Notes under the pieces: model-generated
Told to the model about the DNA's origin: nothing
Seen by the model: the letters and a program-made list of their open reading frames with translations, nothing else
The model's database searches: none
Shown: positions 53,671-64,000 of the stretch, piece after piece
Position numbering within the stretch: the first letter of the stretch is position 1
Layout: every line of letters begins with the position of its first letter
Translations under genes and position numbers: made by a program
From: an uncultured Nitrospiraceae bacterium
GTDB taxonomy: Bacteria; Nitrospirota; Thermodesulfovibrionia; Thermodesulfovibrionales; Dissulfurispiraceae
Length of the DNA stretch: 64,000 nt
Assembly (NCBI GenBank): GCA_963727805.1
Contig: CAVSHF010000005.1
Span: 800,001-864,000 of the forward strand
Direction: 5' to 3'

Positions 53671-53949
53671 CTATCTCCGCCCCTCAATCAAAAATATGGA
53701 AAACTCTTTGTTCCCTGCTCCTGCCACATCTCTGACAACCGTCGCGGCCGTTGTGTTGCTGACATCATGGAAGCCCGATTCCTGAAGCAGCTTTTTTAGC
53801 TCTTCACGGTCGAACCCGAAGTGGAACACGCCTGTATTATCGCTGTGGAATAAACCTCCCTCCGCATCGAGATCGGCGAAGCATAGCCGACCTTCCGGCT
53901 TGAGGAGTTGATGCCACATCCTGAACAGCATGCCGGTATCAGGAACATG
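53671..53949 (-). pseudogene. 3' half of a class I SAM methyltransferase, truncated by the transposon end
   Basis: HVPDT..LLKPEGRLCFADLD.EGG.FH..GVFHFGFDR is a typical C-terminal half; the SAM-binding motif I is absent and similarity starts exactly at the junction. Confidence 0.75.
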
Positions 53950-54015
53950 TGTCATTTCCAAAAGATAACTTAACCTAACAACAAATAACTTAACTGATAT
54001 ACAAGATAACTTAAC
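53950..54015 (+). repeat. Three direct repeats of ATAACTTAAC (putative TnsB/TniA binding sites)
   Basis: Exact copies at 53965-53974, 53985-53994 and 54006-54015. Confidence 0.85.
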
Positions 54016-54150
54016 TCACCTAGCCCTTATTCCCTACTAAAGTCGGTCATTATTGCTTATAGGAGGACTTTCTTAATCTCGTTAAGTGCCTCGTTCGGCT
54101 CCGAACACAGGACTTCGAGGCCGGACACTGTTATTTCCTTGCAATATAAG

Positions 54151-61036: not shown

Positions 61037-61328
61037 CAGCCCCTCTTTGCATCCAGGTTATTTTTGCATATCCTTGCGCTATTGTTATGTGAGTTAGTTA
61101 GTGGAATGTCGGCTGCAGTTAGATGTGCGGGGATAGCCCCCTTAGATAAAACAGAAGAAAAAAGAATGGAAATAATGAATGATGGAGTCGGGAGTGGAAG
61201 TGCGGCAACGCTTTCGTACAACAGAAACCTCCATAAAAGAAGTTCTTGTTGTCACGCGCCTCTTGAGTCCCTCCCAGATACCCAGGCAACGCCTGACGAA
61301 GATAAAAAATATCTATAGAAACTGTCAG

Positions 61329-61357
61329 AGTCTACCACTTAACAAAATTAATGTCAA
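61329..61357 (-). promoter_or_regulatory. Sigma70-type promoter for the Rhs operon
   Basis: TTGACA (61352-61357)-17 nt-TAGACT (61329-61334). Confidence 0.6.
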
Positions 61358-61687
61358 GGAATTGGGCCCTTTTGTCAAGGAATTTTTCATTACTTGTACG
61401 TACTAGACATCTGATGATTACTGGATGGCCCCAGAAATCTTTTCTTGTCTGCTTCTTCCTGTACCTCACATCGATGCATATGTGACGGAAATTACGATTC
61501 TTCTTTGATATGAGACATATATTCTATAGAATACACTTATATGGTTCGTATCACTGAAACGAGTCCAGCAAACTGCACTTCTTATTGAAATAATGCAAAG
61601 CTGTTTGGTAATATTTTCACAGCTGAACAGAAACTCTATAATCATTAGTTAGATAGTACAGATGACTTTGTGAAAGGTCCTAAGAAG

Positions 61688-62431
61688 ATGTCTATTCTAA
61701 GCGAGATGACCTATAGTGTGCTGAGGGTGACAACGGTTATTTCTGATCACCTTTTCTGGCCGGCGATGGAAACTTCCGGGCAGCGAGCGGCTCGAGAGCT
61801 ACAACTGCCTCCGTCTTTTATTCAACAACTATTAGCAGTCGAAGATAAACGTTTTTTCTACCACCTTGGCGTGGATTTCCTATCTGTACTGAGGGCATTG
61901 TTATTCAATATGGGGACAGCAGTGACTCGCCGGCACGGTGCAAGCACGATAACCCAACAAATATACTCCAATACTACCCGTCGCAACGGAACTTACCGAT
62001 CCACTGTCGGTTTCAAGATTGCTCAGTCGACCTGGGCAGTTAAGAGAACATTGACACACTCAAAGCTATATGTCCTTAGGGATTACTTAGATTCGGTATA
62101 TTTCGGCAAGTCTTTCTATGGGCTTAAGCAGGCTTCCGAGGGATATTTCGGACGGATCCCGCGTGACCTCTCTATAGCCGAGAGTTTCTTTTTAGTTGAG
62201 CGCATCGCAAGACCTAACAAAGTCTGCGTCAGACGGATAGAAATTCTCGCCGCCAGGAGACCCCTTGCCATCCTCCTCAAAGCTGATCTCACCATCATCT
62301 GTCAACTGGCAGCACTGTACGAACGGTATTTTAATTGTGGGGAGGTAATAGCACAATGCCTGGAGAGGTCTCTCAGGAAACAGGTCGTGCATACGTCTAC
62401 GTATTCGGAGGCTGTCTCGAGAGAGCGGTAA
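61688..62431 (+). CDS. Stand-alone GT51 transglycosylase-domain protein, divergent, no obvious TM anchor
   Basis: EDKRFFYHLGVD (motif I), GASTITQQ (motif II), YLDSVYFG; start could be GTG at 61670. Confidence 0.8.
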   Translation: MSILSEMTYSVLRVTTVISDHLFWPAMETSGQRAARELQLPPSFIQQLLAVEDKRFFYHLGVDFLSVLRALLFNMGTAVTRRHGASTITQQIYSNTTRRNGTYRSTVGFKIAQSTWAVKRTLTHSKLYVLRDYLDSVYFGKSFYGLKQASEGYFGRIPRDLSIAESFFLVERIARPNKVCVRRIEILAARRPLAILLKADLTIICQLAALYERYFNCGEVIAQCLERSLRKQVVHTSTYSEAVSRER

Positions 62432-63072
62432 AAGGGTTCCAACAGGTTTTTAACGTGTATCAGAACCCGGAGAAATTGACCTTCGCAGGATTCTCTGGAG
62501 CCGAATACTCCTTCGATCTTTCTGGCCTTTACGAAGGGGCTGAAGTGTTTGTGGAGTCAAAAGGGTATCGCGATGGCTCAGGCATTCTGGACGGATACAA
62601 AGAGTTTTTGGCCAAGGCATATTGTACCTCTGTTCAGAACATGAGACACCGGAACGATCATTTCTGGTTTGTCACAAACGTGTCGTTTGGCTCTTCGATT
62701 GGTCGCCGCTTATGGTCTCCTGAATTCATTGCTGACTCACTTGGTGGATCGAAGTCGCCAAAGGCCGCGATGATTATCGGCAGTGCACCGATCGATGAAG
62801 GACATGTCCGATCCCTCAGCCAAAGAATTGCCATTGGTATCTTTACCGACTCCTTTATTAAGGTGATGGGCGTACTGTATCACTTTCAGCCGGGAGATAC
62901 GCTGTGGAGCGCAACGAAACTGATACACGGGGGCCGCATGCCACTTCCTTATTTCGACCCAATTGTGACAAGCGTGCAGCGCATGAACAATAATCAAGAT
63001 CCGAATCGAATTCGCTACGGACAGCGGCTGCATTTGCCCTGGTTCGGTATCCGCGATGCCGATAATAACTAA
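62356..63072 (+). CDS. PD-(D/E)xK nuclease-like domain fused to a C-terminal LysM domain
   Basis: SFDLSG...VFVESKGY, FWFVTN; YHFQPGDTLWSA...MN..QDPNRIRYGQRLHLP; GGAGG RBS at 62341. Confidence 0.7.
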   Translation: MPGEVSQETGRAYVYVFGGCLERAVKGFQQVFNVYQNPEKLTFAGFSGAEYSFDLSGLYEGAEVFVESKGYRDGSGILDGYKEFLAKAYCTSVQNMRHRNDHFWFVTNVSFGSSIGRRLWSPEFIADSLGGSKSPKAAMIIGSAPIDEGHVRSLSQRIAIGIFTDSFIKVMGVLYHFQPGDTLWSATKLIHGGRMPLPYFDPIVTSVQRMNNNQDPNRIRYGQRLHLPWFGIRDADNN

Positions 63073-63261: not shown

Positions 63262-64000
63262 ATGCCGTCGTCTAATATGATTATCATTCCTGCGGAGAAA
63301 CTTGTTGAAGGTTACGAATACGCAGTTGAGAACGGAAGTCGTCTGTTTAATGCTGCTCTTTTGCTATTGGATAAATATCCTGATAAAGCCCTTGCACTAG
63401 CACAACTTGGGCAGGAAGAAATTGGGAAATCGCTGACTATACTGGCTGCTTTTCACCTACCTGAAATTCCCACTGCTTGGACTTGGTTCTGGAAAGGCTG
63501 GAAAAGCCACACACTAAAAGCTCATAGAGCTTACCTTTATGAAATCATCTATCCATTGCGAATTGAGATGAAAGCTCCGGATGGGACAAAATACGCTGGC
63601 CACCCGTTACGAACCCCAATATCAAAAGAAAAGGAGTCAGGGCTATATGTAAATTTCGATGTAGCCTCAAGTTGCTTTGTCAATCCCATTAGTGATGTAT
63701 CAAATTTTGACGCTTTAGCACGCATCTCTACGCTATTGTATCTTAGCACAACAGCTGATGCCGTTCGGCGCGTGTTGCTCCATACAGACATACCGTTCCG
63801 GACGAAAGAATTCGGCGCTGTCGCGTTCAAAATTTGTAGCGAAGAGGTCTACCAACAGGATATGCCACAGATCCTCGAGCAGTTCGGAGCATCATCGGTA
63901 AGGCACGCCAAGATACTGCATGACCTGAACATGGCCTTGAGAAGTGTACCTCCAGGCTTCGAACATGCGACAGGACAACCTGTTGTTAACCAGTCTGATG
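63262..64000 (+). CDS. AbiV family abortive-infection-like protein, runs off the window
   Basis: Not in the ORF track. Open from ATG 63262 to the end of the window: ENGSRLFNAALLL..ALALAQLGQEEIGK, SHTLK, KESGLYVNF. Confidence 0.75.
   Translation, partial: MPSSNMIIIPAEKLVEGYEYAVENGSRLFNAALLLLDKYPDKALALAQLGQEEIGKSLTILAAFHLPEIPTAWTWFWKGWKSHTLKAHRAYLYEIIYPLRIEMKAPDGTKYAGHPLRTPISKEKESGLYVNFDVASSCFVNPISDVSNFDALARISTLLYLSTTADAVRRVLLHTDIPFRTKEFGAVAFKICSEEVYQQDMPQILEQFGASSVRHAKILHDLNMALRSVPPGFEHATGQPVVNQSD

Follow-up and report, generated by a model that had tools for sequence, protein, structure and literature searches.

A Tn7-borne gene pair joining an anchor-less GT51-fold protein to a LysM-bearing nuclease, a candidate glycan-gated conflict module

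Signal-gated defence nucleases of bacteria are known to answer nucleotide messengers, phage proteins or DNA. The closest described logic, a synthase coupled to a ligand-gated PD-(D/E)xK nuclease, is found in the cyclic-oligonucleotide-based antiphage signalling system (CBASS; Cap4 and NucC) and in the CRISPR ancillary nucleases Can2 and Card1; glycosyltransferases of family GT51, the moenomycin target, are known as wall polymerases that are exported. Here, we describe a two-gene cassette in which a GT51-fold protein (gene 1) precedes a PD-(D/E)xK nuclease ending in a LysM domain (gene 2), found in an uncultured Nitrospiraceae bacterium (assembly GCA_963727805.1, here G000). The window, meaning the whole stretch analysed, comprises 64,000 nucleotides (contig CAVSHF010000005.1, here C5, positions 800001 to 864000). 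Sequence comparison and predicted structures establish both folds, the nuclease site, the catalytic Glu of the GT51 protein and its missing anchor, an obligate pairing, co-inheritance and mobility. We read the pair as a stand-alone, mobile, cytoplasmic conflict module in which glycan chemistry would gate a DNase, most likely against phages and by cell suicide (probability about 0.4).

The combination of a GT51 protein with a nuclease-LysM protein appears to be undescribed. The cassette differs from CBASS in holding no CD-NTase, SAVED or CARF domain; no CD-NTase or cyclic-nucleotide sensor recurs in its flanks and no CBASS model of PADLOC matches. The LysM domain would be the sensor and the GT51 fold its partner, and gene 2 matches the nuclease folds of Cap4, Can2, Card1 and NucC at Z 5.7-7.7. 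Gene 2 shares the PD-(D/E)xK core with Mrr, Avs3, Lamassu LmuA and Shedu, with Avs3 (E=1.8e-4) and LmuA the top Foldseek matches, but identity is 10-16%, gene 2 carries a C-terminal LysM domain and the cassette has no STAND, SMC or other ATPase. A distant homologue (P0076) matches the DzbA model of Dazbog (E=8.3e-5 over 91 residues). Identity with Dazbog was rejected, as the DzbA match occurs in only 1 of 22 family members and the cassette lacks DUF262, a domain that Dazbog contains (excerpts of PMC10952713). The component models of PADLOC 2.0 place the cassette in no system, and neither the nuclease family nor the cassette has a describing model in Pfam, NCBIfam, PHROGs or PADLOC. No description of the pair was found in a literature search for which subscription papers and preprint supplements lay largely outside the scope, so that an anonymous listing is possible; excerpts of PMC12419801 and PMC10952713 were not relevant. 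The first-pass annotation, which knew of no such architecture, is borne out within these sources.

Gene 1 matches Pfam Transgly at E=1e-35 (123 bits against a cut-off of 27), and its AlphaFold model (predicted local distance difference test score [pLDDT] 87.7, residues 232-247 below 50) superposes on 2oqo (VIA Z 16.3, root mean square deviation [rmsd] 3.0, 162 residues aligned) and on MtgA (3vmq, Z 15.3). EDKRFFYHLG and GASTITQQ are present, FKIAQ stands in place of RKxxE, and a transpeptidase domain is absent, as the first-pass annotation had reported. The catalytic Glu52 (codon 61841-61843) is intact, with Glu in 53 of the 54 clade rows and a gap in the other. According to excerpts of PMC3608906, the motif-1 Glu of GT51 is the catalytic base, and the donor site is a positively charged pocket for pyrophosphate on which processivity probably depends.

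With MtgA, other monofunctional glycosyltransferases and class A penicillin-binding proteins (PBPs), gene 1 shares the fold, the motif-1 Glu, GxSTxxQQ and the K/Y/Y/G of motif 4, the last two kept across the gene-1 clade in a motif table of 54 rows. It differs from them in its basic charge, in having no transmembrane (TM) anchor, in the replacement of the motif-2 Lys, the motif-3 Arg/Glu and the motif-4 Asn, so that the change noted earlier for RKxxE extends further and throughout the clade, and in motif 5, rewritten as an invariant FFLxERxxxPN. In NCBIfam there were only PBP and MtgA matches below cut-off (56 against 183 bits for MtgA), in PHROGs a single weak match, and in PADLOC none; a phage search gave 51 records, all of which covered less than 80% of the query, and the annotated ones among those listed were ordinary PBPs or MtgA. 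The relatives comprise 45 proteins with E<=5e-30, followed at about 1e-20 by ordinary MtgA-like proteins (among the best 120 of 288 matches). Together with 8 translated loci and the query, they give 54 rows that form one long-branch clade of their own (Shimodaira-Hasegawa approximate likelihood ratio test, 99) in a quick tree that also included 3 GT51 domains of the host and 25 of the 75 outgroup proteins. Apart from gene 1, which is mobile and tied to a nuclease, three ordinary GT51 matches occur in the host genome. Gene 1 keeps the catalytic Glu and falls outside MtgA and class A PBPs by the five-motif set and by hydropathy at the N-terminal anchor; judged by sequence and model, it is a GT51 fold but not an ordinary MtgA.

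A TM-grade helix, called where a 19-residue Kyte-Doolittle window reached >=1.9, occurs in 0 of 46 gene-1 clade proteins versus 72 of 75 outgroup proteins; the most hydrophobic such window of gene 1 scores 1.74. The clade is strongly basic (net charge per residue +0.057 versus -0.007 in the outgroup). A long N-terminal helix occupies the position of the anchor of other GT51 proteins in the model and has only a modest amphipathic character (median moment 0.54, against a median of 0.37 and a 95th percentile of 0.56 after shuffling).

The homologue search with gene 2 yielded 54 proteins including the query, the others 45-84% identical, and a representative search yielded 58 matches, among them distant full-length relatives and LysM-less ones of about 180-195 amino acids (aa). 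The AlphaFold model (pLDDT 92.8) has two domains. Residues 1-172 superpose on 1y88 (VIA Z 10.1, rmsd 2.8, 117 aligned) and 2vld (Z 9.3), followed at Z 6-8 by the nuclease folds of AspBHI, Card1, MspJI, Can2, Shedu, Avs3, LmuA and Cap4; the top 50 VIA rows are mostly PD-(D/E)xK-type nucleases, the remainder LysM domains. Defence effectors (Avs3, LmuA, Cap4, Can2/Card1 and Shedu) are thus among the folds closest to the nuclease, a point in favour of a defence role. Among LysM-type homologues D54 is present in 68 of 69 (one gap) and E67 and K69 in 69 of 69 each, E4 is found in all 47 rows that reach that position, and the four residues are invariant in an alignment across LysM-bearing and LysM-less relatives. 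On this evidence from alignment and model, gene 2 has the restriction-endonuclease core fold with an intact E...D...ExK site, and DNase activity is predicted; the D...ExK pattern picked out at first pass thus belongs to such a fold. A search of the Protein Data Bank sequences with the nuclease profile returned nothing, PADLOC gave no meaningful match (best E=0.02) and NCBIfam and PHROGs none. The ESM Atlas contained one anonymous 56-member cluster, 71% of it with LysM, in which Mrr_cat on 16% of members (score 0.77) is a lead only.

The C-terminal domain falls just under the Pfam LysM cut-off as a single sequence (E=5.6e-4, 20.2 bits against 20.9). The earlier call of a terminal LysM domain is backed by the family profile, which matches Ecp6, LytE, SafA, Kbp and CEBiP, the best being the glycan binders Ecp6, LytE and CEBiP, and by the fold of residues 172-231, which superposes on the LysM domain 4uz2 (VIA Z 5.9, rmsd 1.8, 48 aligned). 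DSSP assigns a beta-alpha-alpha-beta order (E173-176, H183-190, H201-211, E224-227) with an insert of about 10 residues between the helices, and the signature residues are kept. The ratio of nonsynonymous to synonymous substitution rates (dN/dS) of this domain is about 0.11-0.15.

Export of either protein was judged by hydropathy and by Tat and lipobox patterns. Gene 2 has no TM-grade helix in any of 54 proteins, and no Tat or lipobox pattern occurs among the 46 gene-1 clade proteins. The conserved Glu4 lies at the extreme N-terminus of gene 2, so that a signal peptide appears to have no room. These results agree with the earlier assignment of both proteins to the cytoplasm and make it highly improbable that the pair is an exported wall-remodelling enzyme with a wall-anchored nuclease for DNA scavenging or transfer, unrelated to defence. 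Most LysM domains do act outside the cytoplasm, which counts for that explanation. So does the statement that the characterised GT51 enzymes all act there (excerpts of PMC3608906), but the flanks show no recurring secretion genes.

In 26 of 28 gene-2 loci from GTDB genomes and metagenomes, the gene immediately upstream is a gene-1 relative; the other two (L015 and L025) have no upstream DNA. After near-copies were merged (L005/6, L011/26, L017/18/19, L022/23/27, L024/25 and L028/29), all 19 distinct loci with upstream DNA are paired; conservation of the pair had been set beforehand as a refutation test. The paired loci come from several phyla, the named records being Hydrogenedentota, a proteobacterium and Acidobacteriota. 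Their flanks are unrelated, and across the 28 loci no third gene recurs, apart from one AbiV relative (L013). The AbiV gene next to the pair in the window is thus a neighbour outside the conserved cassette. Distances in gene 1 and gene 2 co-vary (Mantel rho 0.78 over 17 loci, a value reached in 0 of 2000 permutations), which at the level of sequence shows co-inheritance and not interaction. In 3 pairs with unsaturated dS, gene 1 has a dN/dS of about 0.13-0.19, and both domains of gene 2 lie at about 0.08-0.15.

Gene 2 has a very patchy distribution. Of 401 genomes of its own phylum, 1 contains it at full length, and 45 others matched the gene-2 search, one (G238) in the nuclease part and 44 by LysM only. 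The nuclease profile matched 3 of 390 genomes in the own class, 1 of 401 in the phylum of genome G403 and 2 of 401 in its order. No further two-gene copy was found in that phylum or order, in the own class or in 20 relatives searched by DNA. Viral contigs held no gene-2 relatives, a viral fold library contained nothing that matched at E<=0.001, and a plasmid search returned only distant LysM-less relatives.

The two genes lie on the same strand and their reading frames share 76 nucleotides, with the coordinates first given (Table 1). Purine-rich sites like GGAGG precede the gene-2 start in most of 20 loci compared, and because the ribosome-binding site of gene 2 lies inside gene 1, the two are likely to be translationally coupled. 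The C-terminal 25 or so codons of gene 1 that overlap gene 2 encode a low-confidence tail and show almost no synonymous change, and on that ground the tail is judged to be a by-product of gene 2. Overlapping order with an internal ribosome-binding site, as in toxin-antitoxin operons, also suits a guard, in which the GT51 protein would be a non-polymerising decoy that binds lipid II or glycan and holds the nuclease inactive by contact. The nuclease would be freed by loss of the ligand or by a phage PBP inhibitor binding the decoy, and such a pair could also be a mobile-element addiction module. We consider this unlikely. In its favour, conserved charged GT51 residues have been lost and FFLxERxxxPN, a possible partner surface, gained, and gene 1 is damaged at two distinct loci (5'-truncated at L011/L026, frameshifted at L021) beside a gene 2 that is apparently intact as far as the contigs extend. 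However, a broken gene 1 beside an apparently intact gene 2, as at L011, suits an activator rather than an antitoxin, although an assembly error is possible there; the catalytic Glu is retained in 53 of 54 rows; and a three-gene form has LysM on a separate protein, so the domain would do more than dock on the nuclease. At L026 a fragment of an insertion-sequence-type transposase lies upstream of the truncated gene 1. A 290-aa protein (P0074) joins the first part of GT51 in frame to the second part of the nuclease-LysM protein, through internal deletion, natural fusion or an artefact of assembly.

The three-gene form occurs in G238 as a GT51 gene, a LysM-less nuclease gene and a gene for a 326-aa protein ending in LysM, adjoining QatABC, radC and DUF932. 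The three genes are also present in G1485, a genome from the family of G238, where all of them carry frameshifts through decay or sequencing error. The third protein had 13 matches including its own copy, and its N-terminal 250 residues belong to no family; it was found in 0 of 135 genomes, plasmids held nothing for the three-gene form, and the ESM Atlas gave no usable match. A by-eye likeness of its N-terminus to a degenerate nuclease and to the partner of the actinobacterial nucleases described next is not claimed, profile comparisons having been non-significant (best P=0.087). LysM-less nuclease relatives on two actinobacterial plasmids and in G1084 have another partner, and GT51 and LysM are absent within 12-16 kb in all three. 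On the plasmids (L046:7938-9964 and L048:5917-8060) the nuclease, homologous to gene 2 (E=5e-38 and 2e-35 to the gene-2 nuclease profile) and likewise in an overlapping two-gene layout, differs in being accompanied by a 474-497-aa protein of no known family, with no GT51 or LysM nearby; these apparently undescribed pairs, which adjoin transposases or a restriction-modification gene, may be a separate two-gene system. Since LysM stays with the cassette on the third gene and the LysM-less relatives lack GT51, the two domains, in a small sample of few lineages, appear to occur together or not at all, a pattern that would favour a glycan link.

Neighbours were sampled as 84 open reading frames within about 6.5 kb, picked by a composition filter; 75 of them and 5 added by hand were scanned with Pfam, and 50 non-housekeeping frames plus 5 from L045 with PADLOC. 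Four short loci (L014, L016, L020 and L021) had no neighbour to scan, and generic ankyrin, TPR, methyltransferase and REase_III matches and the 8xMP at L010 were left uncounted as defence. Clear defence neighbours lie, by raw count, at 5 of 15 distinct two-gene loci: PDC-M48B at L003, PDC-S15 at L009, IetAS and TIR at L012, SLATT and AbiV at L013, and Lit at L024. To these come the three-gene locus L045 (QatABC) and the window itself (AbiV and a PRTase/CARF operon). Mobility markers were found at L003, L004, L005 and L026, and a tRNA gene just upstream at L020. This context would fit a defence-type cassette, and the expected proximity to defence genes holds for these loci but not for the other ten.

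Two loci have peptidoglycan-related neighbours. In one (L002:8071-11209) the cassette lies between a gene for a peptidoglycan-binding protein and a 5'-truncated fragment that is lysozyme-like by eye, with no family match, as if the cassette had been inserted into, or had replaced part of, a gene. In the other (L004:5731-8817), at the edge of a prophage-like remnant, it is divergently oriented to a GH108 hydrolase gene and close to a phage integrase. Such neighbours, the RHS and Imm50-like genes upstream in the window, and the fact that the pair was not found in viral contigs would suit the same wiring turned against a different enemy, as a switch to suicide or dormancy triggered by competitors that attack the wall (with secreted lysozymes, antibiotics or lipid II-targeting toxins) or by the lysis genes of a resident prophage. 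To this we give little credence: known or candidate anti-phage genes neighbour the cassette at six loci plus the window, and destroying its own DNA after a competitor's attack would presumably bring a cell little kin benefit.

Under the anti-phage reading, the basic, anchor-less GT51 protein would act at the cytoplasmic side of the membrane, the site of lipid II synthesis ahead of flipping. Infection that stalls or diverts wall synthesis, for example by a blocked MurJ flippase, or a phage product that activates the GT51 protein, would lead its Glu to join or release a few units of N-acetylglucosamine and N-acetylmuramic acid; because donor-side residues are altered, a short product would be likelier than a long chain. 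Such an oligomer would normally be missing from the cytoplasm; several nuclease monomers would bind it through their LysM domains, and the clustered nuclease would start to cut DNA non-specifically. The overall logic would resemble CBASS, with a glycan replacing the cyclic nucleotide. In support of the first steps, lipid II is made in the cell and then flipped (excerpts of PMC3608906), MurJ locking causes lipid II to build up on the inner-leaflet side, and MurJ is the target of two phage lysis proteins that are unrelated to each other (both from excerpts of PMC10229422). The glycan-messenger mechanism is plausible but unproven. A full immune pathway, with a peptidoglycan-type oligosaccharide second messenger made in the cytoplasm by a re-purposed GT51 protein and read by a LysM-gated nuclease, is a tentative and on balance somewhat unlikely proposal. 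If true, it would be the glycan equivalent of CBASS and a bacterial analogue of plant LysM pattern receptors; a nuclease gated by wall glycan would bring in a new class of immune signal, and bacteria would be seen to survey the synthesis of their wall from within the cell. The GT51 family would gain a cytoplasmic, non-structural role, and the altered active site would be a natural experiment on the residues required for processive polymerisation.

Several points weigh against this anti-phage, glycan-gated reading. The motif-2 Lys, present in 74 of 75 outgroup proteins, is replaced in the gene-1 clade, most commonly by S/N/D/T; motif 3 is xKxxQ, in which 52 of 54 rows have Gln instead of Glu and 4 of 54 retain the Arg; and D/E/S mostly take the place of the motif-4 Asn. 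What the motif-2 Lys and the motif-3 Arg/Glu do, including the lining of the pyrophosphate pocket by the lost Lys and Arg, is presumed here. Because conserved basic and acidic residues have been lost, ordinary lipid II polymerisation by the clade is doubtful, and its members may only bind, without catalysing glycosyl transfer. A single LysM domain binds glycans weakly. The LysM profile also matches the K+ binder Kbp (E=7e-4) and gives a weak match to a tail-tube initiator (E=0.35), so the ligand may be something other than a glycan. The co-occurrence of GT51 and LysM amounts to two linked lineages against three LysM-less loci and not to many independent events. Ten of the 15 scanned distinct loci have no clear defence neighbour, and L007, L023 and L028 are in housekeeping settings. 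Low-level lipid II is always present in the inner leaflet, so the model needs an extra, hypothetical off-switch. The mechanism as a whole is drawn from sequence and predicted structure, and both phage defence and ligand dependence are putative.

Taken further, the likeness to Kbp and the tail-tube initiator, the insert between the LysM helices and the far more basic character of the gene-1 clade relative to ordinary GT51 would suit a sensor without any glycan signal, in which LysM binds a protein or ion, nucleic acid or a phage protein is the ligand of the basic GT51 fold, and both folds are re-used at the protein level. We think this improbable: the glycan cleft retains near-invariant motifs 1, 2 and 4, the top LysM matches are glycan binders, and GT51 and LysM are gained or lost together. 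The glycan-sensing defence system proposed by the first-pass annotation stands in part. Its refutation tests on pairing, gene-2 fold, export and defence neighbours did not overturn it, and it is supported by the joint occurrence of GT51 and LysM even where LysM is on a third gene, and called into question by the lost GT51 residues and by the resemblance of LysM to non-glycan binders.

Table 1. Coordinates of the cassette and associated features (window positions unless a locus is named)
Feature	Coordinates	Strand	Remarks
Gene 1	61688..62431	+	247 aa, anchor-less basic GT51-fold protein; alternative GTG start at 61670
Gene 2	62356..63072	+	238 aa, nuclease domain and C-terminal LysM
Gene 2 nuclease domain, residues 1-171	62356..62868	+	Mrr-like PD-(D/E)xK fold (predicted), E4/D54/E67/K69
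Gene 2 LysM domain, residues 172-230, and short tail	62869..63072	+	Just under Pfam cut-off; supported by profile, fold and dN/dS
Gene 2 ribosome-binding site GGAGG, inside gene 1, ahead of gene-2 ATG	62341..62345	+	From sequence
Candidate sigma-70-like promoter 5' of gene 1	61614..61642	+	10/12 consensus matches, 17-nt spacer; consensus match only
HEPN_AbiV gene	63262..64000	+	248 aa, stops 8 nt past window end; Pfam E=1.7e-10
5-bp target duplication and transposon left end	53945..54020	+	Three TnsB-site-like repeats match right end
Three-gene variant	L045:9198-11473 and L058:450-2866		GT51, LysM-less nuclease, 316-330-aa protein with LysM

The pair lies inside a 44,716-bp Tn7-like transposon that runs from window position 53950 to C5:898665, in keeping with its earlier description as transposon cargo just upstream of an AbiV-like gene. 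An identical 5-bp duplication flanks both ends, so that element plus duplications reaches C5:898670, and the element splits a methyltransferase-like gene (labelled by eye). At the right end lie tnsA/B/C/tniQ-like genes, with a TnsA-like match (E=3.4e-19) and a DDE transposase nearby; the tnsC and tniQ labels are our assignment, with no family match. The cargo is rich in conflict genes and includes an RHS gene with an Imm50-like gene, AbiV, a Dcm-Vsr block, several unknown proteins and an operon (L001:12086-19991) encoding NADAR, a HAD-containing 650-aa protein, PRTase-CE, an ORC-CDC6-like ATPase, a CARF6-type protein and a PfkB kinase. In 20 related genomes only short fragments of this DNA were found. 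The gene after AbiV (L001:4338-6038, 566 aa) had no match in Pfam, NCBIfam, PHROGs or PADLOC. Repeats at 61324-61409, considered as a transposon end, were dropped once the true ends had been located elsewhere. The non-coding segment 61145-61410, upstream of the RHS gene, has no Rfam match; it has an 80%-identical copy in the same genome (C3:50694-50907) and a pair of 12-nt direct repeats that overlie a -35 box, and may be a regulatory leader.

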